Shown piece after piece: positions 2 to 47,328 of a stretch of 64,000 bases of DNA. Position numbers and translations under genes: made by a program. Below the pieces are notes generated by a model, which worked only from the letters and a program-made list of their open reading frames with translations, did no database searches and was not told where the DNA came from. The stretch lies in the NCBI GenBank assembly GCA_045807765.1, contig JBJMGU010000120.1, forward strand, positions 778 to 64,777, written 5' to 3'. Every line of letters starts with the position of its first letter. The stretch's first letter is position 1. Origin of the DNA: Blastocatellia bacterium (GTDB taxonomy: Bacteria > Acidobacteriota > Blastocatellia > UBA7656).

Positions 2-667
2 GGGCGCAAGCCTTTCCTGACCGAGTTGCGCGAAGGCTTGCGCTACATCCGCGCGACGCCGTTTGTGCGCGCCGTGATTCTGGTGAACATCGGCTGGGGG
101 ACGGGCGGCGGCATGAACAGCCTCCTCTTTGACCAGATCGGCGGTCACGTCTTCAGCGGCGGTGACCGCGGCGACTGGAACGTGGCGATGCTGTTTACGG
201 CGGGCGGTGCAGGCGTCTTCTTCGGGATGCTGCTATCGCGGCGCATCGCCGCCTGGGTGAGCGACGAACAGCGCGCCGGTCACTTCATCGGCTGGGCGCT
301 GCTGCTGCACGGCGTCTTGTTCGCTATGGGCGGCTGGATGCCGACGCTGCTGCTGATGTCGCTGTGGATTGCCGCCAGCCGCCTGGTGCTGGGCGCCGAG
401 TTCGGCGTTCAGGAGACGATGATGATGCGAGTGATCCCGGACGATTATCGCGGTCGGGTCTTCACCACCGACCGCTCGCTTGAGCTGGCAACGATGGCCA
501 TCTCGACCATCGTCGCCGGCTGGCTGCTGACGCACTTCAGCCCGCGCGTGATGATGGTCGCGTCGGGGCTGTTGTCGGCGAGCCCGGGCCTCTTCTGGTT
601 ATTGGCCATGTGGGCCGCGCGCTTCCGTGTACCGGCGCGCGCGGTGCGCGAAAGTTACGGCGACTAG
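2..667 (+). CDS. MFS-family transporter, C-terminal part (5' end outside window)
   Basis: The frame is open from nt 2, and the track's M at 26 is a TTG. The product is a run of hydrophobic helices (LLMSLWIAASRLVLGAEFGVQETMMMRVIPDDYRGRVFTTDRSLE) typical of MFS permeases. Confidence 0.6.
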   Translation, partial: GRKPFLTELREGLRYIRATPFVRAVILVNIGWGTGGGMNSLLFDQIGGHVFSGGDRGDWNVAMLFTAGGAGVFFGMLLSRRIAAWVSDEQRAGHFIGWALLLHGVLFAMGGWMPTLLLMSLWIAASRLVLGAEFGVQETMMMRVIPDDYRGRVFTTDRSLELATMAISTIVAGWLLTHFSPRVMMVASGLLSASPGLFWLLAMWAARFRVPARAVRESYGD

Positions 668-4276: not shown

Positions 4277-4954
4277 TTATTCGATTGGCGGCTGAAGCTC
4301 TGGAACCGTAAGGCCGCGAGCGCGGCGTGATCGTAGGATGTTGAAGACAATCAGCAGGGTTGCAACAATGGCAACCGCCAGCAGGACTTTCAAGCCATGC
4401 CGCTTGATCTGTTCACCCGCTCCCTCGCCACCAAGCCAGATGGCCAGCAAGCCTTCGATTGAGAAGCGCACCAGGCGGCCCGCGAAGACGGCGATGATGA
4501 AGCGCGACAGCTTCAGCTTGAAGACGCCCGCCGACAGCACAAACGGCTTAAAGGGAAATGGCGGCGGCAGAATCGCTGTCGCCATGATGGCCAGCATATC
4601 ATAGCGCCCGAGCAGGTTTTCGATGCGGGCGCGCCGCGCCGGCTCGATCTTGCGGAGTGCCAGCATACCGGCGCGCCGCGCCACCCAGTACATGAATGTG
4701 CAGCCGATGGTCGAGCCGAGGCTCGCGGCGACAGCGTAAAGCGGCATCAGCGCATGGCTTCTGGCGCTCAACAGAATCATCACGGCATCCGGCCCGCCCG
4801 GCAGCGGCAAGCCCGCCGAATCGATCAGCGAGATGGCAAACAGGCCGAGCGGCCCCAGCGTCACCAGCCATTCGCCGAACGTTTGCAAGCTCTGTTTGAT
4901 CCCCAGCAGGTTAAAGAGAAGTTTGTTCATTCGTCCGTCTATCTCGAATCGCAA
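4277..4954 (-). CDS. DedA/YqaA-type (VTT domain) membrane protein
   Basis: Multi-TM protein with LGLFAISLIDSAGLPLPGGPDAVMILL, typical of the SNARE-associated/DedA family. Confidence 0.65.
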   Translation of the reverse strand: MRFEIDGRMNKLLFNLLGIKQSLQTFGEWLVTLGPLGLFAISLIDSAGLPLPGGPDAVMILLSARSHALMPLYAVAASLGSTIGCTFMYWVARRAGMLALRKIEPARRARIENLLGRYDMLAIMATAILPPPFPFKPFVLSAGVFKLKLSRFIIAVFAGRLVRFSIEGLLAIWLGGEGAGEQIKRHGLKVLLAVAIVATLLIVFNILRSRRARGLTVPELQPPIE

Positions 4955-4972: not shown

Positions 4973-6184
4973 TCATTCAGCTTGCGAGCGGCTGCTAATC
5001 TGCGCCTGCGGAAAGTAGAAGCGCAGTATCTCTTCATAGCGCCGCCCGCTGCGCGCCTGCGCCACGGCGCCGGCCAGACACAAGCCGACCTGGCTGCCAA
5101 AGCCACGGCCACGAAAAATCATCTGAGCGCCGCGCCGCGTCACGATGAAGCTGCCGCTCAAGACCACGTTCCAGCCGAGCCGCCGCCCGGTGGCGCGGCG
5201 AAATTCGTCGCCGCTCATCGTCCACTCGCGCCCGCTGTCGCGTATGCTCACGGCGCGCACAAAGCCGGCGTCGTCGCCGTCAACCGCGATCTCTGTGCCC
5301 GGTGAAAGCGGCGCGCCAAGAGCCGCCGCCAGCGCGTTGATAATGGCTCGCGCGTCAATCTGCCGCGCCCAGCGGTAATGGCTCGAAGCGCGGCACCATT
5401 CACAGCGCTGCCGGCGGTAAGGATAAGCACACACGCCGCCCCAGACCATCTGCGGCGTCGCCGTCAGGCCGCCACACGAGGCGCTGAAGTAAGTTTCAAC
5501 CGGCTCGCCCGCAAAGCTCAGATGCTCACCGGCGGTTGCGGCAACGGCACTCAAAACCACGGGGCGCGCGGCTTCAGCAGCCAGATCGCTCTCGCCGCGA
5601 TAGAGCTGGCAGTGCGTCGTGTCACAAAAATCAAAGCCGTCGGCGGTGTGCCGGCTCGGATGCGAAAGCATATAAGTCCGCACGACGATGGCCAGCGCCT
5701 TTAAGGCTTCGGGCGCACGCGCCTCGGTCTCGGCGGCGACGATGGAAGCGACTGCCGCTTCGCGGTCGGTCGTCAGGATGATCTTCAACGCGCCGCGCAG
5801 ACTCTTGTCGCCTGCGGCGATCAATAGGTCGCCGCGCACCGTGCGGCGCAGCTTGCCCGGCAGCGTTAGCTCCAGCGTCGCCTCTGGACCGGCGTGCAGC
5901 CGCGCTTCTGCGGCGTTGAAAGTTTGACGGGTGCCGCCGCGCGCATCGCTTATGGTCACCTGCAACTGCTCGCCAACCAGTTGCAAGCGCACGCGGCTGC
6001 CGGCGCTGAGCTGGCGACTGCCGGTCAGGCGGTTAAGATCAATCGTTGCGCCGTCGCCCGAAACCACCCGCGCTTCGACGACCTGCGGCTTAAACAGGCT
6101 GAACAACCCCATGCGCACGGTCTCGGCGCGCGCATGGGGCGCGGCCAGGATCATCAAGGCAACGGCGGCAAGCAGTCTCGGCAT
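4973..6184 (-). CDS. SpoIID/LytB domain protein
   Basis: Signal peptide, ALKALAIVVRTYMLSH...FDFCDTTHCQLYRG and SASCGGLT motifs characteristic of SpoIID-type lytic transglycosylase/amidase enhancers. Confidence 0.8.
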   Translation of the reverse strand: MPRLLAAVALMILAAPHARAETVRMGLFSLFKPQVVEARVVSGDGATIDLNRLTGSRQLSAGSRVRLQLVGEQLQVTISDARGGTRQTFNAAEARLHAGPEATLELTLPGKLRRTVRGDLLIAAGDKSLRGALKIILTTDREAAVASIVAAETEARAPEALKALAIVVRTYMLSHPSRHTADGFDFCDTTHCQLYRGESDLAAEAARPVVLSAVAATAGEHLSFAGEPVETYFSASCGGLTATPQMVWGGVCAYPYRRQRCEWCRASSHYRWARQIDARAIINALAAALGAPLSPGTEIAVDGDDAGFVRAVSIRDSGREWTMSGDEFRRATGRRLGWNVVLSGSFIVTRRGAQMIFRGRGFGSQVGLCLAGAVAQARSGRRYEEILRFYFPQAQISSRSQAE

Positions 6185-23955: not shown

Positions 23956-24438
23956 TCAATGGTTGAACAGCCACTCCTCGAAGATGCGTGACTCTTCCTT
24001 CTTGCCGCTGAAGCGGGCGCGGTTGCGACCCGTCAGCGCCAGGACCTCGGCGTGGTGCTGGCCGGCGCGGTCACCGATGCGCTCAAAATACTTGTAGAGC
24101 CGCGCAATCTGCTCGACCGATTCCTGCGCCGCTTCGACCGTCTTAAAGCTCAGGACGTTGCGAAAGAAACGGCTGTAGGTGTTCTGGTCGCGCGCCGTCG
24201 TCGTGTACAGGTCGAAGTAGCCTTGAATCAATCCGGCGCTCTGCAAAACGCCGGCGACGTAGCTCGGACGCGTGCCGACCTGGCGGGCGATTTCGCCGAT
24301 GTCTGCGGTGCCCGCGCGGTGCAATTCGAGAATGCGGTTCTTCTTTGAGTCCTTGCGCGTCGCGCGCTTCGGCTGCCGATCTTCGACCGGCGGCACAAAC
24401 GGCAGCGGCGCGGTTTCGTTAAACAATATTTCCTGCAT
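23956..24438 (-). CDS. Hypothetical HTH-containing protein (phage-like module, last gene)
   Basis: Predicted HTH ILELHRAGTADIGEIARQVGTRPSYVAGVL. No family recognised. Confidence 0.5.
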   Translation of the reverse strand: MQEILFNETAPLPFVPPVEDRQPKRATRKDSKKNRILELHRAGTADIGEIARQVGTRPSYVAGVLQSAGLIQGYFDLYTTTARDQNTYSRFFRNVLSFKTVEAAQESVEQIARLYKYFERIGDRAGQHHAEVLALTGRNRARFSGKKEESRIFEEWLFNH

Positions 24439-24484
24439 GGTTAATCCTCCTACGGCTCACAGGAAAGCGATAGCGACATCACCT

Positions 24485-25471
24485 TCAGCCGGCGTGGCGG
24501 ATCTCCACCTCGTCAGGCGTCTTCGATTTCAGATAATCGATGAAGGTGCTGGCCGCCTTGCGCGACAACTCTTCGGGACGGCACTTCAACTGTTCAAGGC
24601 ACTGCGCCTCGGCGTTGATGCCGTGCGCGTTGGCAATCGCGCGAATCGCTACGAGTTGCTTGGGCGTCACCAGATCGGCCATAGTCTTCGCCACCGGGTC
24701 GCGCGGGAATTGCGACTGCGCCAGCGCGGCGTTCGGCTTCTTCTGCGATGCCGCCTCTTCTTCCTTGCGATAGAGCTCGCGGGCGATGCCGAATTTGACC
24801 GCGGCGCGCTTCAACGCATCATGCTCGGCCTTCTTGATTCCCTTCTCGTCATAAGCCGAGCCGGTGCCGACGCCCTGGCGGGTGACGCCTTGAATGGTGA
24901 TCGAAGCCGTCACCGCGACGAAATCGCCGATCTGCTTGATCGAAATCACCTCGTGCGACCAGTCGGGGCAGATGCGGTCGAGCAAGTCTGCGACGACATG
25001 CCACTCGACGTAATCCACTTCATGCTCGCGGCCCGCGCGGTCCGTCCAGCCGACGCGCTGGCGAATCAATTCCGGCGACAGGGCATGTGACAGCTCTTTC
25101 AAGGTTTCGGCAAACGGCATCGCGATCACCTGTCCGCCATCGCCGTTGCGGTGATCCGCGTCACTGACTTCAATTTCAGGCTGCGACTCGGCAGTCACTT
25201 CGCCGGTGAATTCGTCCGGCGGCTCAAGGTGAAACTTCACCGCCAGAATATGCTCACAACGGTAGCGCGGCTCCGTTTCGACGCGCCCTTCATAATCGGC
25301 GCAGGAACAGCGCACGCGGCCCTCTTCGTCGCGCCAGACGCGGAACGTCTCTTTGTGGATGCCGGGGCTGGTGACGTTAAAGCCTTCGTAGTCGCGCTCG
25401 ACCATGCCCATTGCGGCAATCGTCTTGGCGCGATTCATTGCCAGATTGGTTTGCTCAACTGCTGCGCTCAT
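24485..25471 (-). CDS. SWIM zinc-finger / Rad52-Rad22-type single-strand annealing protein fusion
   Basis: CSCADYEGRVETEPRYRCEH fits SWIM CxCxnCxH. The central VDYVEWHVVADLLDRICPDWSHEV...GVGTGS...KKAEHDALKRAAVKFGIARELY matches the Rad52/Sak core signature. Confidence 0.7.
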   Translation of the reverse strand: MSAAVEQTNLAMNRAKTIAAMGMVERDYEGFNVTSPGIHKETFRVWRDEEGRVRCSCADYEGRVETEPRYRCEHILAVKFHLEPPDEFTGEVTAESQPEIEVSDADHRNGDGGQVIAMPFAETLKELSHALSPELIRQRVGWTDRAGREHEVDYVEWHVVADLLDRICPDWSHEVISIKQIGDFVAVTASITIQGVTRQGVGTGSAYDEKGIKKAEHDALKRAAVKFGIARELYRKEEEAASQKKPNAALAQSQFPRDPVAKTMADLVTPKQLVAIRAIANAHGINAEAQCLEQLKCRPEELSRKAASTFIDYLKSKTPDEVEIRHAG

Positions 25472-25650
25472 CTTCCGACCTCGCTTTCGTAAATCGCTTT
25501 TGCTCGTTGCTGGCTGGCGACAACGGCGGCCCGTGATTCAGATTCAACGGCCCCGAGCCGCGCTTCCAGCTCGCGCACCTGGCGACTCAGCTCCTGCACC
25601 CGCCGCCACAGCGCCTCAAAGTCTTCCCATACTTCAGAATGGCAGGACAT
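25468..25650 (-). CDS. Small coiled-coil protein, hypothetical
   Basis: MSCHSEVWEDFEALWRRVQELSRQVRELEARLG. Its stop overlaps the start of the SSAP gene by 4 nt. Confidence 0.4.
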   Translation of the reverse strand: MSCHSEVWEDFEALWRRVQELSRQVRELEARLGAVESESRAAVVASQQRAKAIYESEVGR

Positions 25651-25870
25651 CGCTTTTGCCTTCCTGCGCCGGCAATGGCGCGGCGCCAATCGCTTCCTGC
25701 ACTTCGGAGAGGAACTCCATCTCCGCTTCTAACTGCGCCGACCAGAACTCGTAGCCCTGCCAGGCGCTCCAGTCGGCCCACTCATCCATCTCTATGCGAT
25801 AGCTCGTTTTTTCTTCCTGGTTCTTCATGGCTATCCCCTTCTCTGTTTCATACGTGAAACATTGTATCAC
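25634..25870 (-). CDS. Small acidic hypothetical protein (first gene of leftward operon)
   Basis: 78-aa ORF with a GTG start, divergent from the XRE gene. No family recognised. Confidence 0.4.
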   Translation of the reverse strand: MIQCFTYETEKGIAMKNQEEKTSYRIEMDEWADWSAWQGYEFWSAQLEAEMEFLSEVQEAIGAAPLPAQEGKSDVLPF

Positions 25871-25921
25871 GGTTCCGAAATTTGTTTCAAGTGTAAAATA
25901 ATATGTTGCATCCGTGATACA
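25845..25921. promoter_or_regulatory. AT-rich divergent control region with inverted repeats (candidate XRE operators)
   Basis: Palindrome GTTTCA-TACG-TGAAAC (25845-25860). 10-bp inverted repeat TGTATCACGG (25863-25872) / CCGTGATACA (25912-21) between the divergent operons. Confidence 0.4.
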
Positions 25922-25962
25922 GGCTATGTTATAAGTATGATAGGTAAGGAGGGTCTTATCCG

Positions 25963-26391
25963 ATGACCGAACCCGCGTTGAACATTGTTGAGTTAGGGGA
26001 GTACGTGAAGCGCAAGAGGTTGGAAGAGAAGCTATCGCTGCGACAGGTGGCGACCAACATCAGTGTCAGCGCCTCGACGCTTTCGCGAATTGAGAATGGC
26101 ATTGGCGTGCCCGACAGCGCGACGCTGGCGCGGCTGGCGGCGTGGCTGGGCATCCCGCTTGAGCGGCTGATGCGCGGCTCGCTGGTCGAGACCGGCGAAG
26201 CCGCCACCGCGGCCTACATCGAGCCGGTGATCTATTATCCGACCGAGTCCATGCCGAGCATCGTCGAAGCCCACCTCAGGGCCGACCGCAATCTGAAGCC
26301 GGACATGGCGAAAGCCCTGGCCGAGCTGTTCCGCGTCGCTTATACTCAATTCGCTACGAAGCCAAACGAGACGACTGAGACGAATGAATAG
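25963..26391 (+). CDS. XRE-family HTH transcriptional regulator
   Basis: LGEYVKRKRLEEKLSLRQVATNISVSASTLSRIENG is a classic Cro/C1 HTH. Confidence 0.8.
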   Translation: MTEPALNIVELGEYVKRKRLEEKLSLRQVATNISVSASTLSRIENGIGVPDSATLARLAAWLGIPLERLMRGSLVETGEAATAAYIEPVIYYPTESMPSIVEAHLRADRNLKPDMAKALAELFRVAYTQFATKPNETTETNE

Positions 26392-27016
26392 TCAAGAGCC
26401 GCAGCCGACTCAACCAATAGATGAGCTGCTACCGCCGACGGCCAAGCGCCGCGTCTATGAGCGCATCGCGCTCAAGGTGCGCGAATTCGCCGGCGCCCCT
26501 CTGGATCAGCCGCTCGACCCCTGGAAACTGGCGCCCTTCGTGAAGATTCGCGTGATGAGCCTGCGCGACGTGCAGGGCTTATCGATGGAGAGCCGGCGTG
26601 TGCTGTTGGGCGATAACGGCAAGGCGTGGTCGGGCGGTGCCAGCCGTCCGCTGCCCGACGGCTCGCGGCTCGTCTTCCTGAACCCGAATCACACACGCGA
26701 GCGCCAGGCGGCGACCTTGATGGAAGAGATTTGCCACGTTCTGCTCGGCCATTCGCCGACCCGATTGATGCACGAAGAGGAGACCACCAAGGGCGTGCGC
26801 TTCCGCAACTTTGACAAGAACCAGGAAGAGGTCGCTTATGCGGTTGGCGCGGCGTCGTTGATTCCCTACTTTCCGCTCAAGCACGCGGTGCTGGCCGGTC
26901 TGACCTCTGACGTCATCGCGCGGCGCTTCGGGGTCAGCCGCGATCTGGTCGAATACCGCATCAAAGTCTGCCGCCTCTGGACCGAATACAAATCCCGCCG
27001 CGTCCAGGCCAGCTAA
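26384..27016 (+). CDS. ImmA/IrrE-like (DUF955/M78-type) protein with variant metal motif
   Basis: Overlaps the XRE gene by 8 nt. TLMEEICHVLLGH aligns to the family's aHELGHllLH, and QEEVAYAVGAASLIP aligns to E-x-EAN-x-FA. The first His of HExxH is Glu here. Confidence 0.6.
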   Translation: MNSQEPQPTQPIDELLPPTAKRRVYERIALKVREFAGAPLDQPLDPWKLAPFVKIRVMSLRDVQGLSMESRRVLLGDNGKAWSGGASRPLPDGSRLVFLNPNHTRERQAATLMEEICHVLLGHSPTRLMHEEETTKGVRFRNFDKNQEEVAYAVGAASLIPYFPLKHAVLAGLTSDVIARRFGVSRDLVEYRIKVCRLWTEYKSRRVQAS

Positions 27017-27055
27017 CTAAGCGTTCGGCCCCTGCGCGCCGGTAGTAAGGAAGCC

Positions 27056-27529
27056 ATGAAGAGGATGCTCTATAGAATCACCTTCTGGTGTCTGGTTTTT
27101 ACCTTTAGCTGCTCGACTGCTGCCCACAAGCCAACCGACAAAGATACGGCTGAGATCATCAGGCTCACTCTGGAACGTGCAATCGTCGCAGGTGAGGCTC
27201 CCGATTACCACATGATCAAGGATAGACCCCCTATTGTCATATCATCAGAGAATCTCAATCCGAACTGGCTGCCTCAGTTTCCAGGGCTTGAATTAACAAT
27301 GCTCGATCAGCAGCAAATACAAGAGAGGGCTGACGCAAGCCCACTTTTCTTATATCTGAGATTCAGAAGCATTCAGATAAAGGGGGAACAAGCAGAAGTA
27401 GTTTTGGATGTGGTCCAAGCCAGGGGGAAGCAAACTAAGGAGATGGGCTTCGGCGGTAGTCTGACAATCGAGTATCGGAAGGAAAATGGGAAATGGATAG
27501 GAGAGGTGAAGGAAAAGGTGATAGCCTGA
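27056..27529 (+). CDS. Cassette ORF 1: putative lipoprotein, hypothetical
   Basis: Signal peptide with Cys (VFTFSCS). AT-richer codon usage than the flanks. attC-like site starts 6 nt after the stop. Confidence 0.55.
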   Translation: MKRMLYRITFWCLVFTFSCSTAAHKPTDKDTAEIIRLTLERAIVAGEAPDYHMIKDRPPIVISSENLNPNWLPQFPGLELTMLDQQQIQERADASPLFLYLRFRSIQIKGEQAEVVLDVVQARGKQTKEMGFGGSLTIEYRKENGKWIGEVKEKVIA

Positions 27530-27534
27530 CAGTG

Positions 27535-27627
27535 GCCGAACAAGGCGTTGCAGCGGAGGCCGTGAAGCGCAGTTCTTATCGTGACTTGTGAGGCCGCTCA
27601 CGGCCCCGCTGAACGCGGGCGTTAGAC
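27535..27627 (+). repeat. attC-like site 1
   Basis: GCCGAAC-AA-GGCGTT-G-CAGCGG-A-GGCCGTG...variable...CACGGCC-CCGCTG-AACGC-GGGC-GTTAGAC. The 3' box fits GTTRRRY; the 5' box is one mismatch from RYYYAAC. Confidence 0.65.
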
Positions 27628-27666
27628 CTGCCAACGAGTACCGGGGGTTCAAAGAGCGGGGGTAAA

Positions 27667-28050
27667 TTGCGCAGAACTCTAATATTGCTTTCAACCTGCA
27701 TCACCCTCAGCTACATCCTGGCACTTGCTGGCTATCGGCTCTTATACTCGCTTTTCGCTGGAAGAGGAGCCAACGATAAAATCGACTTCATCCTGATCAC
27801 TGCCGTGGGTATCTTCCTTCTACTCCCGGCTACCTCTGTATTAAACGGCATCGTGGTCGGTTTGCTGGAAAAGAGTCAGCGATGGTGGCTATCTGGAATT
27901 TCAATAGCACCTTTACTGCTCTACCTGATCTATCAAATGCCAGCCGGGCCAGTGATGATCTTATGCATCATCTACGAGGTGATAAGCTTGGCTACAGGTT
28001 ATATAGCTATGAAGCTGAGATACCGGTATAGCCAACTAAGGCAGGTCTAA
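27667..28050 (+). CDS. Cassette ORF 2: small polytopic membrane protein, hypothetical
   Basis: 127 aa with about 4 hydrophobic helices and a TTG start. Its TAA stop lies inside the GTCTAAC box of attC-like site 2. Confidence 0.5.
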   Translation: MRRTLILLSTCITLSYILALAGYRLLYSLFAGRGANDKIDFILITAVGIFLLLPATSVLNGIVVGLLEKSQRWWLSGISIAPLLLYLIYQMPAGPVMILCIIYEVISLATGYIAMKLRYRYSQLRQV

Positions 28051-28136
28051 CAAGCCGTTGCGGCGGAGGCCGTGCCGCGAAGTTCACATAGTTCCCGAAA
28101 TGCCGCTCACGGCCCCGCTGAACGCGAGCGTTAGAC
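28045..28136 (+). repeat. attC-like site 2
   Basis: GTCTAAC (RYYYAAC) ... GTTAGAC (GTTRRRY), exact reverse complements. Same paired blocks and two unpaired 5'-arm bases as site 1, with a different central 27 nt. Confidence 0.7.
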
Positions 28137-28434
28137 ATCCTTGCTCGACAGAGACGTAATTGTTCGTCAGCGCCTACGAGCCCACTTCGCAGGCAAGCGC
28201 ACAACCACGAGTTGGTTGTGCGGTGGCGCAGCTCGCTGGCGTATGCCGTCACTTGCTTCGTTGCGTGGTCGTTGCGCTACTCGCTGGCGCATGTTTCGAT
28301 GTGGCCGCCCGCCGCGCCGCCGCTTCGCGGCAGTGCTTCAGCAGGCGCGGCTATGTCGTCAGTGTGCAGCATGCACAATCGGGATGCCGCACAGGCGCGT
28401 TGACTACGGCGATGCGTCAAATTATCGTTCAGAA

Positions 28435-28632
28435 ATGAAGGTGCGCGATGTGTTAAAATTGCTTAATGATGATCGCTGGTACTTGGTCGCGACCGAAGGC
28501 AGTCACCGTTAGTACAAGCACGCGACCAAGCCAGGACGTGTAACTGTACCAGGTAAGCCAAATGATGACCTTCCACCTGGAACCTTGAATAGTATATTGA
28601 AACAAGCTGGACTGAAGAAGTCGGGGGATTAA
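28435..28632 (+). pseudogene. hicA: hicA-type toxin gene interrupted by in-frame TAG
   Basis: MKVRDVLKLLNDDRWYLVATEGSHR*YKHATKPGRVTVPGKPNDDLPPGTLNSILKQAGL. The HicA signature GSH(R/K)x(F/Y)KH is split by an amber codon at 28510-28512 where family members have a sense codon. Confidence 0.7.
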
Positions 28633-28635
28633 AGC

Positions 28636-28848
28636 ATGCGCTACGCTATCGTCATCGAGAAAGCAGAGAATAACTATGCGGCCTATGTTCCTGACCTGCC
28701 AGGCTGCGTGACAACTGGGCAGACGATAGAAGAGACCGAAGAACAGATTCGTGAGGCTATTGAGTTTCATCTTCGGGGGCTACGAGAGGATGGCCTGCCG
28801 ATACCAGAGCCATCCAGCAAGGTGAACTACGTCGAAGTTGCTGCCTGA
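28636..28848 (+). CDS. hicB: HicB-type antitoxin (N-terminal RNase-H-like fold only)
   Basis: MRYAIVIEKAENNYAAYVPDLPGCVTTGQTIEETEEQIREAIEFHL is the typical HicB/UPF0150 N-domain. It starts 4 nt after the hicA reading frame ends. Confidence 0.75.
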   Translation: MRYAIVIEKAENNYAAYVPDLPGCVTTGQTIEETEEQIREAIEFHLRGLREDGLPIPEPSSKVNYVEVAA

Positions 28849-28897
28849 AAGCTGAACCCGGTAAGGCGTCAAATAGATTTGGCTGCGAGTCAGGTGC

Positions 28898-28990
28898 GTC
28901 TAACAAGGCGTTGCAGCGGAGGCCGCGCAGCAAATTTCGCGTGGCTTATCGGAGTACTTCAAGCGGCCCCGCTGAACGCAGGCGTTAGGA
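28898..28990 (+). repeat. attC-like site 3 (array end)
   Basis: GTCTAAC...GTTAGGA. The inner stem is GGCCGC/GCGGCC where sites 1-2 have GGCCGTG/CACGGCC, a compensatory change. It ends 3 nt before the convergent oxidoreductase stop codon. Confidence 0.65.
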
Positions 28991-28993
28991 TGA

Positions 28994-30370
28994 TTAACGC
29001 GCACGCTCCCAGCGACCGCGCGTAAAGTCGGGAAACTTCACCGGCACACTGCCGCGCGCCACAGACATCTCGCTGAGCGGGCCGGGGACGCTCCACGAGG
29101 CGGCGTCATACACATCCATGTCCGGCGCTAAACCCTGACGCATACATTCCGTTAGCCGGTAACACATGATGTAATCCATACCGCCGTGGCCGCCGGTCTT
29201 GCGCGCCATCTCGCCTTCTTTCTTCCAGAGCGGCGGCTCGTGTTGCGCCTGATACTTGTCGAGCGTCGCCCAGTTGTGGCCCTCGCCCTGACCGTCAAAG
29301 AAAAGGCGCGGCGGGTAGTCGCGGAAGATGCCCTTCGTGCCTTGAATCAGGTTGATGCGGTCGTAAGGGCGCGGCGTGCTGACGTTGTGTTGCAGCATGA
29401 TGGTGCGCCCTCTGGCAGTCTTGATCAGGCTGGTGTTGTAATCACCGCAGCGGTAGACCTCTTTCCACTTCGGGTCGCCTGCCGGCACATGATCTTTGCG
29501 GTAGGCTTCCAATCCGAGATGCGCCGAACTCATCGACACCAGATAATCGAAGCGGTCACCGCGATTGATGTTCATGTAGTTAGCGACCGGACCGAGGCCA
29601 TGCGTCGGGTAGAGGTTGGCGTCGCGCCGCGTATGATGCGCTCGCCGCCATAAGCCTTCGTCCTTATCTTCGAATAGAATCTCGCGCAGGTCGTGATTGT
29701 AAGCACACTCGCCGTGAACCACCTCGCCGAACAGGCCGGCGCGCACCATGTTCAGCACCATCATCTCCGTGTAGCCGTAACAACAATTCTCCATGATCAT
29801 GCAGTGGCGGCGGTTCTTCTCTGACGCCTCGACCAGTCGCCAGCAATCTTCGACGGTGTAAGCGGCGGGGACTTCCGTGCCGCTGTGCTTACCATTGCTC
29901 AAGGCGGCGAGCATCACAGGGACGTGCCATTCCCAGGGCGTCGCGGTGTAGACGAAATCGATGTCGTCGCGCTTGCAGAGGTTTTCAAAGTCATGGTCGC
30001 CGTTAGCATAAATGGCCGGCGACTTCTGGCCTTTGGCTTCGATCATCTTTGCGGCGCGCTGGCACTTCTCTTTGACGGTGTCACAGACGGCTGTGATTCG
30101 GACATTGTCGATGTTGAGAAATTCTCCGAGAACGCTGGTGCCGCGCAGACCGACGCCGACGATGGCGAGCCTCACGATGTCGCGCGGCTCGAACCGCACG
30201 CCGATCATCGTGTCGTAACGGGCCTGCGGCTCTGGCGTTGTCGCATCACCGGCAATCGCCTCTCGTTCATTGCCCGGCCCATAGCTCGTCAGGCCCAACG
30301 CCGCGCCGGCCATACTCGCGCTTTTCAGCAAGTCGCGGCGCGATAGCTTCTTCTCTTCCCCGCTCATAGT
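28994..30370 (-). CDS. Gfo/Idh/MocA-type NAD-dependent oxidoreductase with Tat signal (GH109-like)
   Basis: Twin-arginine signal SRRDLLKSASMAGAALG. Rossmann segment VRLAIVGVGLRGTS. The length and pattern resemble GH109 enzymes. Confidence 0.7.
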   Translation of the reverse strand, partial: TMSGEEKKLSRRDLLKSASMAGAALGLTSYGPGNEREAIAGDATTPEPQARYDTMIGVRFEPRDIVRLAIVGVGLRGTSVLGEFLNIDNVRITAVCDTVKEKCQRAAKMIEAKGQKSPAIYANGDHDFENLCKRDDIDFVYTATPWEWHVPVMLAALSNGKHSGTEVPAAYTVEDCWRLVEASEKNRRHCMIMENCCYGYTEMMVLNMVRAGLFGEVVHGECAYNHDLREILFEDKDEGLWRRAHHTRRDANLYPTHGLGPVANYMNINRGDRFDYLVSMSSAHLGLEAYRKDHVPAGDPKWKEVYRCGDYNTSLIKTARGRTIMLQHNVSTPRPYDRINLIQGTKGIFRDYPPRLFFDGQGEGHNWATLDKYQAQHEPPLWKKEGEMARKTGGHGGMDYIMCYRLTECMRQGLAPDMDVYDAASWSVPGPLSEMSVARGSVPVKFPDFTRGRWERAR

Positions 30371-30410
30371 CTTCACCCCTCTGAATTTCAAATCGCCGAG
30401 CCCCAGTCAA

Positions 30411-44431: not shown

Positions 44432-44986
44432 CTACGCCGTTTTATCGGCGCGGGCACTTTCCAGGAAGAGGTACTTTCTCCACTCCGGCCTTGATGTCGA
44501 CTCATGGCAGAGGATCGAACGGTCAATACCGTAAGTCAACGCCGCCGGGTTCTTCAGCAGCGGCATGCGCGACTCTTCCGGCGTGCGGTCGCCTTTTCGC
44601 TGATTGCACGCAAAGCATGAAGCCACCAGGTTATCGGCAGATGTCGAGCCGCCGCGAGACGCCGGCAGGATGTGATCGATAGTCAACTCGAACATGCCGC
44701 CGCGCTTGCCGCAGTACTGGCAGCAGAAATGGTCGCGCGCCAGAATCCGCGCGCGCTTGCTTGATGATTTGCGCTGCCTGCCGCGCACGTCGATGTATTC
44801 GATCAAACGAATGACTGACGGCTGCGGAAATTCAAAGCGCAGTGAGCGTAGCATGCGGTCGCCGTCTGCCTCGACCATCTCGGCTGACTCCTTCCAGATC
44901 AGACGCACCGCTCGCGGCACAGCAATCGTCCCCAGCGGTTCGTACGAAGCGTTCAACAGCAATACTTTTCGCGTCAGCAGATTCAT
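44432..44986 (-). CDS. HNH endonuclease (McrA/COG1403-like)
   Basis: CQYCGKRGG...LTIDHILPASRGGSTSADNLVASCFACNQRKGDR (HNH with two CxxC pairs). The ATG lies 7 nt after the encoded CCA of the last array tRNA. Confidence 0.85.
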   Translation of the reverse strand: MNLLTRKVLLLNASYEPLGTIAVPRAVRLIWKESAEMVEADGDRMLRSLRFEFPQPSVIRLIEYIDVRGRQRKSSSKRARILARDHFCCQYCGKRGGMFELTIDHILPASRGGSTSADNLVASCFACNQRKGDRTPEESRMPLLKNPAALTYGIDRSILCHESTSRPEWRKYLFLESARADKTA

Positions 44987-44993
44987 AACGTCC

Positions 44994-45070
44994 TGGAGCC
45001 GATGGAGAGAATTGAACTCACACTCTGCGACTTACGAGGCCGCCGCTTTATCCGTTTAAGCTACATCGGC
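44994..45070 (-). tRNA. tRNA-Thr(CGU), CCA encoded
   Basis: Hand fold: acceptor GCCGATG/CATCGGC, anticodon loop CTCGTAA, T-loop TTCAATT, 3' TCCA. Confidence 0.8.
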
Positions 45071-45073
45071 AAA

Positions 45074-45147
45074 TGCCCGATGGAGGAATCGAACCCCCGC
45101 ATGGCCACTTTGTAAGAGTGGTGCTTTCCCGTCTTAGCTAATCGGGC
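45074..45147 (-). tRNA. tRNA-Val(UAC)
   Basis: Acceptor GCCCGAT/ATCGGGC, anticodon loop CTTACAA, T arm GGGGG-TTCGATT-CCTCC. Confidence 0.8.
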
Positions 45148-45152
45148 AAAAG

Positions 45153-45225
45153 AGCGAGCGACGGGATTCGAACCCGCTCGGTCCAGCTTGGAAGGCTGGC
45201 GCTCATCCACTTGAGCTTCACTCGC
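45153..45225 (-). tRNA. tRNA-Gly(UCC)
   Basis: Acceptor GCGAGTG/CGCTCGC, U73, anticodon loop CTTCCAA, T-loop TTCGAAT. Position 8 is A. Confidence 0.8.
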
Positions 45226-45228
45226 CTG

Positions 45229-45301
45229 AGCCGATGACGGGCCTCGAACCCGCAGCCTGGGCATTACAAGTGCCCTGCACGTCCGCTTGTGCTTCATCGG
45301 C
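45229..45301 (-). tRNA. tRNA-Thr(UGU)
   Basis: Acceptor GCCGATG/CATCGGC (identical to Thr-CGU and Ile-GAU), anticodon loop CTTGTAA. Position 8 is A. Confidence 0.8.
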
Positions 45302-45304
45302 GAA

Positions 45305-45378
45305 TGGGGATAGGAAGAGTCGAACTCCCGGCCTCACCTTTCGGAGAGGTGCGCTCTCTCCGTCTGAGCTATATCCCC
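45305..45378 (-). tRNA. tRNA-Arg(CCG)
   Basis: Acceptor GGGGATA/TATCCCC, anticodon stem CACCT/AGGTG, loop CTCCGAA, T-loop TTCGACT. Confidence 0.8.
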
Positions 45379-45383
45379 GGAAC

Positions 45384-45455
45384 TTAGAATTGCAGCGGGC
45401 ACTTCAAGCAATACCGCTTGCCGTGCGCCTTACAGACTTTCTTATAACGATGCAT
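45384..45455 (-). CDS. 23-aa basic Cys/His microprotein embedded in the tRNA array
   Basis: MHRYKKVCKAHGKRYCLKCPLQF* (not in track). GGAGG at 45465-45469 lies 9 nt upstream of the ATG. It fills the only long (93-nt) spacer, between tRNA-Gln(UUG) and tRNA-Arg(CCG). Confidence 0.5.
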   Translation of the reverse strand: MHRYKKVCKAHGKRYCLKCPLQF

Positions 45456-45471
45456 GGCGATCTACCTCCGA

Positions 45472-45545
45472 CTGCGGGGGCGGGCAACGATTCCGCAACC
45501 TCCACTTTCAAAGAGTGGCGCTCTGCCTGCTTGAGCTACCCCGCA
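45472..45545 (-). tRNA. tRNA-Gln(UUG), irregular T arm
   Basis: Acceptor TGCGGGG/CCCCGCA (U1-A72) with G73, as in bacterial tRNA-Gln. Anticodon loop CTTTGAA. The T arm GCGGA-ATCGTTG-CCCGC lacks the canonical TTCGA loop and the G53-C61 pair. Confidence 0.65.
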
Positions 45546-45549
45546 TCAG

Positions 45550-45622
45550 TGGTTGGGGTGAGGGTCGAACTCACCGCCTCTGGTGCTTCAAACCAGCGCT
45601 CTTCCTGATGAGCTTCCCAACC
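45550..45622 (-). tRNA. tRNA-Phe(GAA)
   Basis: Acceptor GGTTGGG/CCCAACC, anticodon loop TTGAAGC (G37), T arm GTGAG-TTCGACC-CTCAC. Position 8 is A. Confidence 0.75.
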
Positions 45623-45626
45623 ATAA

Positions 45627-45699
45627 AGCTGCCGGCGAGACTCGAACTGGCGCGGATAGGTTCAGGAAACCTGCGCCTCATCCGCTCGGCCACGGCAGC
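45627..45699 (-). tRNA. tRNA-Arg(CCU)
   Basis: Acceptor GCTGCCG/CGGCAGC, anticodon loop TTCCTGA. D arm TGGCCGAGCGGATGAGGC resembles class II D arms. One T-stem mismatch. Confidence 0.7.
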
Positions 45700-45706
45700 A
45701 AAAAAA

Positions 45707-45784
45707 TGGTGGAGAGTATGGGGCTCGAACCCATCCATCGAGTTTGCAGGACTCGCATGCCGCCAACAACACCTTGCCGACCGA
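45707..45784 (-). pseudogene. Degenerate/chimeric tRNA-like unit (Ala-UGC-like 3' half with CCA)
   Basis: Canonical 3' part: T arm ATGGG-TTCGAGC-CCCAT, then ACTCTCC-A-CCA. Anticodon arm CGAGT-CCTGCAA-ACTCG. The 5' end (GGTCGGCAAGGTG...) cannot pair with the 3' acceptor strand. Confidence 0.5.
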
Positions 45785-45857
45785 TGGGCCGCGTGGGAGT
45801 CGAACCCACTACCACCCGATTAAAAGTCGGGTACTCATCCTGATGAGCTTGCGGCCC
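45785..45857 (-). tRNA. tRNA-Lys(UUU)
   Basis: Acceptor GGGCCGC/GCGGCCC, anticodon stem CCCGA/TCGGG, loop CTTTTAA, T arm GTGGG-TTCGACT-CCCAC. Position 8 is A. Confidence 0.8.
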
Positions 45858-45858
45858 G

Positions 45859-45949
45859 TACTCCCGCCGGGACTCGAACCCGGATCACGCACCAATCTAG
45901 TGCTTGCAGGGTATAAGCCTGCTGTTTTATCCAATTAAACTACGGGAGC
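45859..45949 (-). tRNA. Class II (long variable arm) tRNA with anticodon UAU
   Basis: Acceptor GCTCCCG/CGGGAGT, A73. Anticodon stem GCAGG/CCTGC with loop CTTATAC. 22-nt variable arm AAGCACTAGATTGGTGCGTGAT (stem GCAC/GTGC). T arm CCGGG-TTCGAGT-CCCGG. Confidence 0.7.
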
Positions 45950-45953
45950 GCGA

Positions 45954-46025
45954 TGAGCCCGACAGGAATCGAACCTGCTTTTCCGGTTTAAGAGACCGGC
46001 ACTTCGCCAGCAAAGCTTCAGGCCC
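45954..46025 (-). tRNA. tRNA-Lys(CUU)
   Basis: Acceptor GGGCCTG/CGGGCTC (two G-U pairs), anticodon stem CCGGT/ACCGG, loop CTCTTAA. Position 8 is A. Confidence 0.75.
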
Positions 46026-46028
46026 AAA

Positions 46029-46103
46029 TGCTCCCGGCAGGACTCGAACCCGCATCGCCAACCTTAGAAGGGTTGTGCCTTAATCCAGTTAGACCACAGG
46101 AGC
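46029..46103 (-). tRNA. tRNA-Arg(UCU)
   Basis: Acceptor GCTCCTG/CGGGAGC, anticodon stem CAACC/GGTTG, loop CTTCTAA, T-loop TTCGAGT. Confidence 0.8.
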
Positions 46104-46108
46104 AAAAG

Positions 46109-46182
46109 CGAGGTGTAGGGGAGTCGAACCCCTCTCTTCACGATAGACAATCGTGCGCCTCAAGCCGCTCGGCCAACACCTC
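46109..46182 (-). tRNA. tRNA-Asp(GUC)
   Basis: Acceptor GAGGTGT/ACACCTC, G73, anticodon stem CACGA/TCGTG, loop TTGTCTA (pyrimidine at 37). D arm TGGCCGAGCGGCTTGAGGC. Confidence 0.7.
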
Positions 46183-46186
46183 GAAA

Positions 46187-46259
46187 TGCCGATGTCAGGA
46201 TTCGAACCTGCATCGCGCGGTTATCAACCGCGTGCTCTGCCTGCTTGAGCTACATCGGC
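46187..46259 (-). tRNA. tRNA-Ile(GAU)
   Basis: Acceptor GCCGATG/CATCGGC, anticodon stem CGCGG/CCGCG, loop TTGATAA. D arm GCTCAAGCAGGCAGAGC is identical to that of Gln(UUG). Confidence 0.75.
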
Positions 46260-46260
46260 A

Positions 46261-46337
46261 TGGCTCCGGGACAAGGATTTGAACCTTGAATCTCCTGAGT
46301 CAGAGTCAGGCGCGATAGCCAGTTTCGCCCTCCCGGA
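46261..46337 (-). tRNA. tRNA-Gln(CUG), CCA encoded
   Basis: Acceptor TCCGGGA/TCCCGGA (U1-A72), G73-CCA, anticodon loop CTCTGAC, T arm CAAGG-TTCAAAT-CCTTG. Position 8 is G. Confidence 0.75.
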
Positions 46338-46342
46338 ACACG

Positions 46343-46417
46343 TACGGGCGGTTGGAGTCGAACCAACGATCTCCTGATCCACAATCAGGCGCTCTTGACC
46401 ATCTGAGCTACGCCCGC
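46343..46417 (-). tRNA. tRNA-His(GUG), without encoded G-1:C73
   Basis: Acceptor GCGGGCG/CGCCCGT, anticodon loop TTGTGGA, T arm GTTGG-TTCGACT-CCAAC. Position 73 is A and the base 5' of G1 is U. Confidence 0.75.
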
Positions 46418-46422
46418 ACAAG

Positions 46423-46495
46423 CAGGGATGGCGAGACTCGAACTCGCTAAAACTGGTTTGAAAAACCAGGCGCTCGGCCCTTTGCATTCATCCCC
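46423..46495 (-). tRNA. tRNA-Glu(UUC)
   Basis: Acceptor GGGGATG/CATCCCT, G73, anticodon stem CTGGT/ACCAG, loop TTTTCAA. The D loop contains AGGGCC as in Glu tRNAs. Position 8 is A. Confidence 0.75.
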
Positions 46496-46515
46496 ATTAA
46501 AGCCAAAGATCACCA

Positions 46516-46589
46516 TGCGCGAGGGGAGAGTCGAACTCCCAAGACTTCGGGTTTAAGCCGAAGATGTCTGCCGCTTGCATCACTCGCGC
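46516..46589 (-). tRNA. tRNA with Leu anticodon UAA but class I (short variable loop) architecture
   Basis: Acceptor GCGCGAG/CTCGCGC, A73, anticodon stem TTCGG/CCGAA, loop CTTAAAC, 5-nt variable loop. D arm TGATGCAAGCGGCAGACATC. Confidence 0.7.
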
Positions 46590-46594
46590 AAGAT

Positions 46595-46670
46595 TGGTGG
46601 CAGGGCCGGAGTCGCACCGGTGATTTCCTGGTTATGAGCCAGGCGAGCCTGATTCCTGCTCCACCCCTGC
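46595..46670 (-). tRNA. tRNA-Met(CAU)-like, CCA encoded, irregular T arm/acceptor register
   Basis: D arm GAGC/GCTC, anticodon stem CCTGG/CCAGG, loop CTCATAA. T-loop TGCGACT (G at 55). The acceptor pairs only as GCAGGG/CCCTGC, consistent with a 1-nt loss. Confidence 0.55.
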
Positions 46671-46675
46671 ATCAG

Positions 46676-46748
46676 AGCGCGCGGTCAGACTCGAACTGAC
46701 ACGTTAGCGGTTTTGCAGACCGCCGCCTTCCCTTTTGGCTACGCGCGC
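46676..46748 (-). tRNA. tRNA-Cys(GCA)
   Basis: Acceptor GCGCGCG/CGCGCGC, U73, anticodon stem GCGGT/ACCGC, loop CTGCAAA, T arm GTCAG-TTCGAGT-CTGAC. Confidence 0.8.
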
Positions 46749-46754
46749 GAAAAG

Positions 46755-46825
46755 AGCTTCGTATGGGACTCGAACCCATGTCTGCGACCTGGCAAGCCGC
46801 CGTCTTTCCTCTGGACCAACGAAGC
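46755..46825 (-). tRNA. tRNA-Gly(GCC)
   Basis: Acceptor GCTTCGT/ACGAAGC, U73, anticodon loop TTGCCAG, T arm ATGGG-TTCGAGT-CCCAT. Confidence 0.8.
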
Positions 46826-46829
46826 CGTA

Positions 46830-46903
46830 TGGGAGCAAAGAGATTCGAACTCTTATGACCGGCATTTTGAGCGCCGGATGTCTACCACTTGCATCATGCT
46901 CCC
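46830..46903 (-). tRNA. tRNA with Leu anticodon CAA, class I architecture
   Basis: Acceptor GGGAGCA/TGCTCCC, A73, anticodon loop CTCAAAA, 5-nt variable loop. D arm TGATGCAAGTGGTAGACATC. Confidence 0.7.
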
Positions 46904-46907
46904 GCAG

Positions 46908-46981
46908 TGCGGACGGAGAGATTCGAACTCTCAAAACGTCGCCTCTGAAACGACGATGTCTGCCGCTTGCATCACGTCCGC
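46908..46981 (-). tRNA. tRNA with Leu anticodon CAG, class I architecture
   Basis: Acceptor GCGGACG/CGTCCGC, A73, anticodon loop TTCAGAG, 5-nt variable loop. D arm TGATGCAAGCGGCAGACATC. Confidence 0.7.
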
Positions 46982-47077
46982 AGCAGTGTGGGCGACCGGA
47001 GTCGAACCCACAACGGATTGGTTACCGCTACTTGTTTTCAAGACAAGCTGACATTCCAGCATCTACTCTTCCACGAA
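46982..47077 (-). pseudogene. Degenerate class II tRNA-Ser(UGA)-like unit
   Basis: Good anticodon arm CTTGT-CTTGAAA-ACAAG and variable arm AGCGG/CCGTT. The T region reads GTGGG-TTCGACT-CCGGTCG-CCCAC (7 extra nt). The 5' GGAAGAG has no complementary 3' strand. Confidence 0.45.
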
Positions 47078-47161
47078 CGGAGATGAGAGGAGTCGAACCT
47101 CCACGGGATATTTCACCCGGCGGCTTAGCAAACCGCTGCCATACCTTTAGGCGACATCTCC
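47078..47161 (-). tRNA. tRNA-Ser(GCU), class II
   Basis: Acceptor GGAGATG/CATCTCC, G73, anticodon loop TTGCTAA, long variable arm CGGGTGAAATATCCCGT, T arm GGAGG-TTCGACT-CCTCT. Confidence 0.8.
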
Positions 47162-47167
47162 ACAAGG

Positions 47168-47237
47168 CAGGAGTGACAGGAATCGAACCTGTTCTGCTGG
47201 TTTTGGAGACCAGTTGGCTGCCTTAGCTCTCACTCCC
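47168..47237 (-). tRNA. tRNA-Trp(CCA), irregular D region
   Basis: Acceptor GGGAGTG/CACTCCT (G1-U72), G73, anticodon stem CTGGT/ACCAG, loop CTCCAAA, T arm ACAGG-TTCGATT-CCTGT. The D stem is only 3 bp (GCT/AGC) with extra linker nucleotides. Confidence 0.65.
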
Positions 47238-47242
47238 AAGCA

Positions 47243-47328
47243 TGCCGGCGGGAGGACTCGAACCTCCGAAGTCCACAAAGGGACGCCTGTTCTACAGACA
47301 GGAGCGATTGCCGCTACGCGACGCCGGC
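47243..47328 (-). tRNA. tRNA-Tyr(GUA), class II (first gene of array)
   Basis: Acceptor GCCGGCG/CGCCGGC, A73, anticodon stem CCTGT/ACAGG, loop CTGTAGA, long variable arm with GTCC/GGAC stem, T arm GGAGG-TTCGAGT-CCTCC. Confidence 0.8.

Follow-up and report, generated by a model that had tools for sequence, protein, structure and literature searches.

Organization of the locus

Downstream of a gene for an ImmA-like peptidase, the 64,000-nucleotide stretch of chromosomal DNA analysed here (the window; contig JBJMGU010000120.1 of a Blastocatellia bacterium) contains an array of three consecutive units that resembles the gene cassettes of an integron. Each unit consists of a short cargo followed by a 92-93 nt element with the features of an attC recombination site, and all of them are located on the plus strand (Table 1). 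Sequence inspection and alignment place the three elements exactly where an earlier note, made from the letters of this DNA alone, had described them. The distances from one attC to the next are 510 and 853 bp.

According to the IntegronFinder definition, an attC cluster without an integron integrase (CALIN) comprises at least two attC sites with no intI nearby (PMC4889954). The three sites of the window lie on one strand and less than 4 kb apart, with neither an integron integrase within 4 kb nor a pseudogene of one within 10 kb. We searched the window by tblastn with two probes, an IntI1 sequence, used purely for this purpose, and a Blastocatellia IntI. These searches returned nothing better than E = 0.6, a match located inside another gene, and Pfam scans of the approximately 58 open reading frames (ORFs) of the window gave no PF00589 match, in agreement with the claim of the earlier note that the window is devoid of an integrase. 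Neither intI nor an intI remnant nor any other tyrosine recombinase is found in the 64 kb, i.e. 27 kb upstream and 35 kb downstream of the array, and the array therefore represents a CALIN, as the note had proposed. In the position where a complete or sedentary integron would have intI and attI beside its array, the region upstream of cassette 1 holds genes for ImmA, XRE and SWIM-Rad52 proteins followed by metabolic genes. With 27 kb of non-cassette genes upstream, the further suggestion that the array is the distal end of a sedentary integron does not hold for a contiguous structure.

We thus conclude, with a probability of roughly 0.9, that the region 27023-28984 is a chromosomal CALIN of a Blastocatellia-like acidobacterium, with three attC sites and what were once four gene cassettes, of which two have become fused. 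The reading of the elements as attC sites is supported by four independent lines of evidence, namely their geometry, the linkage to IntI in relatives, the permutation signature of the crossover and the junction shared with a sister strain.

Anatomy of the attC sites

Alignment of the three elements reveals approximately 30 conserved nucleotides at each end and a more variable centre. The centres, which had been described as unrelated, are so only in part, being semi-conserved across the family of sites characterized below. As single-stranded DNA each element folds into the hairpin predicted for it, in which a bulged G separates the 5-bp pairing GCGTT/AACGC from the 6-bp pairing CAGCGG/CCGCTG, and a bulged A separates the latter from a helix of 6-7 bp (GGCCG(Y)G/C(R)CGGCC). 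The ends carry the inverted boxes RYYYAAC (R'') and GTTRRRY (R'), with one deviation each in site 1 (R'' GCCGAAC) and site 3 (R' GTTAGGA). The outer box pair GTCTAAC/GTTAGAC that had been ascribed to all sites is thus complete in site 2 only, and the outer R-box helix is present only where both boxes are complementary. Across the attC family the AAC and GTT triplets are nearly invariant.

Counted from the outer end, the two extrahelical bases occupy positions 16 and 23 of the top-strand AAC arm and enclose a stem of 6 bp. This confirms the earlier assignment of the bulges to the 5' arm and agrees with the rules for attC sites, according to which the extrahelical bases reside on the top-strand AAC arm and a 6-bp stem separates the first from the last (Nivina et al. 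2016, PMC5027507). Known attC sites usually have G at bottom-strand position 16, which is a tendency rather than a rule, and a conserved T at position 23/24; the unpaired spacer usually has 5-6 nt and the length of the sites is 57-141 bp (PMC5027507). The window sites with their variable centre fall inside this length range, and they have the bottom-strand T at position 23 (top-strand A in at least 90% of the sites of the family).

The alignment of 59 family members is almost gapless, with a mean column identity of 82% and nearly invariant arms. The compensatory change that had been noticed in the last helix is real and recurs throughout the family, with CG in 42, UA in 12 and UG in 3 sites at one pair, and GC in 54 and AU in 4 at the next. 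Covariation is otherwise limited because the arms are nearly invariant and the 3' arm was fixed by the search pattern. The fold z-scores are modest (-2.0 to -3.8), and the weight of the observation rests on sequence comparison rather than on folding energy.

We built a covariance model (R1) from the 59-site alignment. The window sites, which belong to its training set, score 90.1-102 bits, compared to 14.9 bits for the best unrelated match in the 64-kb window; apart from the sites themselves, only their images on the minus strand exceed background (16.8-22 bits). Approximately 90 attC sites outside the training set score 50-107 bits in other loci. Rfam 15 contains no attC family, and an Rfam search of the window and the region gave no meaningful match.

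The attC family adjoins integron integrases in related genomes

A scan for exact copies of the 3' arm CCCCGCTGAACGCNNGCGTTAG, in which each species was represented by a single genome, gave matches in 36 genome loci, nearly all of them from metagenome-assembled genomes (MAGs) of Blastocatellia. The earlier guess of an Acidobacteriota-like host is therefore well founded. In each locus with multiple exact matches these lie on a single strand. Using the covariance model and nhmmer, approximately 150 co-oriented sites were detected in approximately 216 kb of related loci. The median spacing is 725 bp (104 same-strand consecutive spacings, nhmmer), the longest ORF between sites has the same orientation as the attC in 89 of these 104 cassettes, and the median cassette GC content is 0.48. 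Given these co-oriented arrays of ORF-sized units, the family is not a scattered repeat of the repetitive extragenic palindrome (REP) or miniature inverted-repeat transposable element (MITE) kind. The scatter in both orientations that the earlier note had named as the mark of such a repeat was looked for; the window contains only three clustered copies, and in the approximately 216 kb of related loci the family forms arrays.

Local exceptions to co-orientation occur in two of the 36 loci, i.e. at 4437-4535 (minus) versus 4803-4901 (plus) in L027 and at 379-477 (minus, a covariance-model match only) versus 1866-1964 (plus) in L015. In L008 a near-symmetric site at 3022-3122, near the attI region, scores 68 and 61 bits on the two strands. 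As many as 17 of the 36 loci (L005, L007, L009-L014, L018-L020, L024, L025, L029, L032 and L034) come from the MAG SMAG_U8699, a bin labelled 'Candidatus Saccharimonadales'. Almost all of these are short contigs of 1.5-14 kb that are dense with Blastocatellia-type attCs, and they are most likely mis-binned fragments of cassette arrays.

The IntI1 probe matches ORFs in L001, L008 and L023 with 52-54% identity over 314-328 residues (tblastn), and an intI remnant is present in L003. The IntI proteins of L001 and L008 score 466 and 504 bits with the NCBIfam model TIGR02249 'integron integrase' (cutoff 265), both carry PF13495 and PF00589, and both have the IntI-specific insertion segment ALEKKY or ALERKY. 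The intI of L023 is known by tblastn only, with 53% identity to the IntI1 probe and 68% to the IntI of L008. In all three loci intI is located upstream of the array and divergent from it, as in canonical integrons. The physical association of the family with IntI is thus seen in the relatives and not in the window.

Between intI and attI two of these loci, both complete integrons, contain an ORF of 116 amino acids (p116, MRIGLNIKAGRSGTKKLV...) that is co-oriented with the cassettes (L001 3060-3410, minus; L023 2364-2714, plus). The two proteins are 69% identical and have no Pfam match. Homologues are found in L016 (496-840) and L036 (4765-5076), the latter a 41-kb contig labelled Heliomicrobium with two attC sites; the window contains none. 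p116 may be an integron-associated accessory gene.

Cassette boundaries bear the signature of the crossover

In the core box, integron cassettes are cut after the G (G↓TT), so that the TTRRRY found behind an attC forms part of the cassette that comes next. The R'' box of a cassette is thus expected to pair with the half-site at the 5' start of that cassette and not with the box lying beside it. For 63 cassettes bounded by strong sites we compared the R'' box of each cassette with the R' box of the upstream site and with that of its own, adjacent site. The upstream box is complementary at 7/7 positions in 55/63 cassettes, the adjacent box in only 14/63. Random pairing (2000 draws) gave a mean of 13.7 and a maximum of 24 such cassettes. 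Of the two boxes, the upstream one matches better in 43 cassettes and less well in 1. This is the circular-permutation signature of a G↓TT crossover.

The three window cassettes all match their own start at 7/7 positions, including the pair GCCGAAC/GTTCGGC. The atypical R'' box of site 1 is explained by this pairing, since GTTCGGC at 27022-27028, the half-site at the start of cassette 1, is its exact complement, and the same complementarity identifies the left end of cassette 1. We estimate the chance of finding an exact 7-mer within the 40-nt gap at approximately 0.002. The ImmA-like gene ends with TAA at 27014-27016, and the left half-site overlaps the end of this gene region.

Different cassettes at a shared junction in a sister strain

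We searched metagenome contigs with the oxidoreductase that adjoins the array. On a contig from a sister strain (L088), 840 nt of the oxidoreductase gene match the window with 95.8% nucleotide identity. From the right junction G↓TTAGGATGATTAACG (G↓TTAGGA), which in the window falls between G 28984 and T 28985, into the host gene the identity is 100%, and the last differences are located 3-4 nt before G↓TT. Immediately upstream of the junction L088 differs in its attC centre and in its cassettes, the cargo of which comprises a pair with a PIN toxin, a 199-aa ORF and an HNH_2 protein. Two further attCs are present, and at least three cassettes end at the same junction as in the window. The two sister strains thus have the end of the array at one and the same chromosomal point but differ by a turnover of its content, which answers the call in the earlier note for a comparison of strains with respect to gain and loss of cassettes. 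A more distant relative (L037, 84% nucleotide identity) has no array after the stop codon of the oxidoreductase gene.

The left junction, GCTAAC-TAAGC-G↓TT, follows a loose pattern, CTAAY-N5-G↓TT, that it may have in common with the attI junctions of L001 (CCTAAT-TAATA-G↓TT) and L023. Joining the two flanks of the array would give a compact attI-like palindrome, AGCTAAC-TAAGC-GTTAGGA. An origin by insertion at a single attI-like or attG-type site and an origin by separation from a larger integron are both compatible with these data. A degenerate fourth attC at 26980-27060 was considered and rejected, as 35% of background windows score as high in a gap-tolerant alignment to the consensus; of this stretch we keep only the 7-mer GTTCGGC, as the array boundary.

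Cassette cargo

The cassette ORFs have a GC content of 0.48, compared to 0.60-0.63 in the flanks. The statement that the array is richer in AT than its surroundings thus applies to the ORFs but not to the first approximately 280 nt of unit 3, which are GC-rich. The 157-aa protein of cassette 1 has a signal-like N-terminus but lacks a canonical lipobox, and the small lipoprotein of the earlier note is therefore no more than putative. The stop codon that had been seen inside an RYYYAAC box is that of the cassette 2 ORF, the TAA of which lies within GTCTAAC. No terminator-like site was found in 26900-27056, an interval that takes in the ImmA gene's 3' end as well as the gap of 40 nt preceding the ORF of cassette 1, and expression of the cassettes by read-through may therefore be possible.

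The hicAB pair described in the earlier note is only partly intact. While hicB is complete, hicA is interrupted by an in-frame TAG at 28510-28512 (codon 26), directly after the GSHR motif, which leaves 25 residues. An intact HicA ORF beside HicB, as in a type II HicAB system, is hence not present at this locus, and the match of PF07927 requires read-through of the TAG. The stop reflects either inactivation of the toxin or an error of sequencing or assembly. A promoter-like sequence, TTGACT-17-TATCGT, precedes hicA at 28400-28428. In tblastn and blastn comparisons with all fetched loci the proteins and DNA of the window cassettes matched only distant HicB homologues, which are cassettes in L017 and L033, and the GC-rich element of unit 3. 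An exact-protein look-up of the cassette 1 protein and HicB gave no record.

Table 1. Features of the cassette array and its boundaries, in window coordinates.
Feature	Position	Strand	Remarks
Left boundary half-site G↓TTCGGC	27022-27028	+	exact reverse complement of attC 1 R'' GCCGAAC
Cassette 1	27023-27621 (599 bp)	+	ends set by the G↓TT rule
Cassette 1 ORF, 157 aa, signal-like N-terminus	27056-27529	+	no Pfam or NCBIfam match
attC 1, R'' GCCGAAC ... R' GTTAGAC	27535-27627	+	covariance model 102 bits
Cassette 2	27622-28130 (509 bp)	+	start TTAGAC region 7/7 complementary to own R''
Cassette 2 ORF, 127-aa hydrophobic protein	27667-28050	+	no family match; stop TAA in R'' GTCTAAC
attC 2, R'' GTCTAAC ... 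R' GTTAGAC	28045-28136	+	covariance model 98.9 bits
Unit 3 (composite), predicted circle	28131-28984 (854 bp)	+	GC-rich ORF-less cassette fused to hicAB
GC-rich ORF-less element, 5' part of unit 3	28131-28413	+	nhmmer 193 bits
hicA toxin pseudogene	28435-28632	+	PF07927 E = 3.5e-22 with the stop read as Q
hicB antitoxin, 70 aa, intact	28636-28848	+	PF15919 E = 2.8e-14
attC 3, R'' GTCTAAC ... R' GTTAGGA	28898-28990	+	covariance model 90.1 bits
Oxidoreductase gene	28994-30391	-	convergent with the array; array end 3 nt from its stop

Recurrent cassettes without ORFs

The GC-rich element that forms the 5' part of unit 3 recurs as a cassette in other arrays. An nhmmer profile, made from seven full copies and the window copy itself, identifies 18 copies of approximately 265 nt (GC about 0.6-0.66) in Blastocatellia arrays, all co-oriented with the attCs; they include L007 160-437, L029 1468-1746, L024 1203-1477 and L025 4631-4908. 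Where the contig allows, all other copies are bounded by attC sites, whereas the window copy lacks an attC of its own and runs into hicAB. The cassette starts with TTAGACATCCGTGA and ends with GGATGTC, and this end extends the R-box pairing to 11 bp. It contains three CTCGCTGGCGCATG direct repeats approximately 50 nt apart and a conserved GC hairpin, the loop of which has a 54-nt insertion in two copies. Indels that are not multiples of three make a coding function unlikely. The cassette has no Rfam match, and we do not claim a structured RNA: covariation is unfavourable on both strands (+0.83 and +2.03), with one hairpin showing a compensatory pair.

A second recurrent short cassette without an ORF was observed in the related loci, with an attC-to-attC distance of 243-246 bp, approximately 175 nt between the sites and a GC content of approximately 0.59. 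It is located at 1334-1678 and 2463-2805 in L001 and at 2056-2642, 5584-5925 and 7134-7478 in L002, and is repeated several times in one 43-kb contig.

Genomic surroundings

A 3-kb module (23956-27016) adjoins the array on its left. It codes for an annealing protein of the SWIM-Rad52 type and for a divergent XRE repressor accompanied by an M78/ImmA peptidase, and it also contains a 160-aa ORF and small ORFs. The SWIM-Rad52 protein (PF04098, E = 2e-13) bears out the earlier observation that the nearest recombination gene is of the Rad52 type. The module contains no integrase and has no homologues in any fetched locus. It is located between two clusters of amidohydrolase and metabolic genes, and beyond module and array ordinary metabolic genes are found on both sides.

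At a distance from the array, 26 transfer RNA (tRNA) genes are packed into 2.3 kb on the minus strand (44994-47328, ARAGORN), of which 24 pass the Rfam gathering threshold. They cover 19 amino-acid specificities, with none for Ala, Asn, Glu or Pro. The tRNA array directly adjoins a gene for an HNH endonuclease (ORF 44432-44986; PF14279/PF01844).

Possible mechanism and alternative explanations

Following the canonical integron mechanism, the single-stranded minus (bottom) strand of each attC would fold into a hairpin in which both extrahelical bases come to lie on the arm facing that of the AAC triplet. This hairpin would be bound by an IntI that is encoded elsewhere and is of the kind that accompanies the attC family in relatives, and the enzyme would cut the core box, in the top-strand reading, after its G (G↓TT). 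Recombination between attC sites would then excise cassette 1, cassette 2 and unit 3 as circles with the ends given in Table 1, and could also swap cassettes in. The promoterless cassettes 1 and 2 may be read through from the co-oriented XRE-ImmA operon, while hicAB would be expressed from its own promoter-like site. We infer that the array is still recombining and that an IntI exists elsewhere in the host genome.

Several observations weigh against this picture. The loss of one attC, by which two cassettes became fused, and the premature stop in hicA indicate partial decay and suggest that the array may be decaying rather than active. With respect to the sites themselves, position 16 of the bottom strand is C in 57/59 and G in 2/59 members of the family, where attC sites usually have G. 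The bottom strand also lacks a folding advantage, with DNA-parameter energies of -23.6, -21.0 and -20.5 kcal/mol compared to -24.3, -23.6 and -20.9 kcal/mol for the top strand. With about 3 x 4 nt, the unpaired spacer is short. The C at position 16, the short spacer and the missing folding advantage are variation within the attC family, and no defining feature is contradicted.

The signs of decay would also fit a relic CALIN, with genuine cassettes that no longer move in a genome devoid of IntI, where the array would be undergoing domestication or erosion. We take this seriously, at somewhat worse than even odds. In addition to the lost attC between the GC-rich cassette and hicAB and the interrupted toxin, it is in line with the lack of intI or a remnant over 27 kb upstream and 35 kb downstream, and with the many CALINs known from genomes without intI (PMC4889954). 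However, the remaining attCs still score 90-102 bits, compared to 99-112 bits for those beside intI in relatives, all three window cassettes have kept perfect circular R''/R' complementarity, and the different cassettes of the 95.8% identical sister strain at the same junction argue that turnover is recent. It is a little less probable, and on balance unlikely, that the array is a detached distal part of a sedentary integron, which lost its connection to intI and attI when the DNA was rearranged or the phage-like module 23956-27016 inserted, and did not arise by build-up at a secondary site. Related MAGs do hold long sedentary arrays of the same homogeneous attC family beside intI, the L088 contig has at least three cassettes ending at the same junction, the non-metabolic module with its 160-aa ORF, SWIM-Rad52, XRE and ImmA genes abuts the left boundary, and the left junction (CTAAC-N5-G↓TT) may resemble the attI junctions of L001 and L023. 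Yet the window contains no further attC upstream, an upstream attC remnant is unsupported given the 35% of background windows that score as high, and neither intI nor a p116 homologue is present. Moreover, the joined flanks AGCTAAC-TAAGC-GTTAGGA fit the insertion at a single site, i.e. the attG route (bioRxiv 10.1101/2022.09.11.507474), equally well.

More speculative, and in our view rather improbable, is the idea that the array, far from being a dead fragment, serves as a further platform for cassettes that lacks an integrase of its own, sits at an orphan core site of attI-like type (AGCTAAC-TAAGC-G↓TTAGGA) directly behind a housekeeping gene and is served in trans by an IntI elsewhere, and that the GC-rich cassette with its three CTCGCTGGCGCATG repeats, conserved hairpin and 18 co-oriented copies could be an overlooked non-coding cassette with a function in Blastocatellia integrons. 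If true, it would explain why sister strains share a base-exact junction with different cassettes. That the elements are ordinary REP or MITE palindromic repeats with no connection to integrons is hardly credible. They are indeed imperfect palindromes of approximately 92 nt with conserved arms and many copies in the genomes that carry them. This reading is nevertheless rejected, as the 64 kb hold three clustered, co-oriented copies, the relatives show co-oriented arrays with ORF-sized spacing over approximately 216 kb, the family adjoins true IntI, and an exchange of boundaries at G↓TT is not expected of either REP or MITE sequences. We therefore retain the interpretation of the region as a CALIN.

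Comparison with known integron systems

CALINs are common, and their origin and activity are debated (PMC4889954; bioRxiv 10.1101/2022.09.11.507474); 83% of them have fewer than 6 attC sites (PMC4889954). The window array resembles known CALINs in the co-orientation of its sites, the spacing below 4 kb, the absence of intI or a pseudogene of it, the small size and a cargo of unknown function without resistance genes. Nothing essential differs, except that here the end of the array is fixed at one point in two sister strains with different cassettes. The locus thus provides a clean natural example of a CALIN outside the Proteobacteria, in which the G↓TT crossover can be read directly from the complementarity of the boxes, and the common junction with different cassettes argues that integrase-less arrays can turn over.

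Among the sites of mobile integrons, attCaadA7 is similar: its R'' box is GTCTAAC, as in sites 2 and 3 of the window, and its R' box is of the same GTTAGAY type. The likeness extends to the bulges at positions 16 and 23, the 6-bp stem between them, the bottom-strand T at position 23 and the G↓TT crossover (PMC5027507). In contrast to mobile-integron attCs, the window sites are longer (92-93 versus 57-70 nt), with a larger variable terminal structure, a C at position 16 of the bottom strand and no bottom-strand advantage in silico.

The high identity of attC sites within the lineage, the long arrays in relatives and the presence of toxin-antitoxin cassettes (hicAB in the window, a PIN-type pair in L088) are shared with sedentary chromosomal integrons such as that of Vibrio cholerae with its VCR sites. 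Taxon-specific attC models have been established for Acidobacteria (Ghaly et al. 2021, PMC8352920). Compared to other homogeneous attC families, that of the window has C instead of the usual G at the first extrahelical base of the bottom strand, and a spacer of approximately 3 x 4 nt. This documents a Blastocatellia attC type with a bottom-strand C16, which could be useful for testing the weight of the first extrahelical base in recognition by IntI.

Cassettes can also be inserted at genomic attG or secondary sites, for which a cut consensus 5'-GWT-3' has been reported (Loot et al., bioRxiv 10.1101/2022.09.11.507474). Like such insertions, the window has a small, integrase-less, intergenic array with G↓TT at both ends, and its cut site fits 5'-GWT-3'; the joined flanks, however, look like an attI-like inverted repeat and not like the described attG motif. 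Taken together, the array belongs to a well-known kind of element and leaves the current picture of integrons unchanged.

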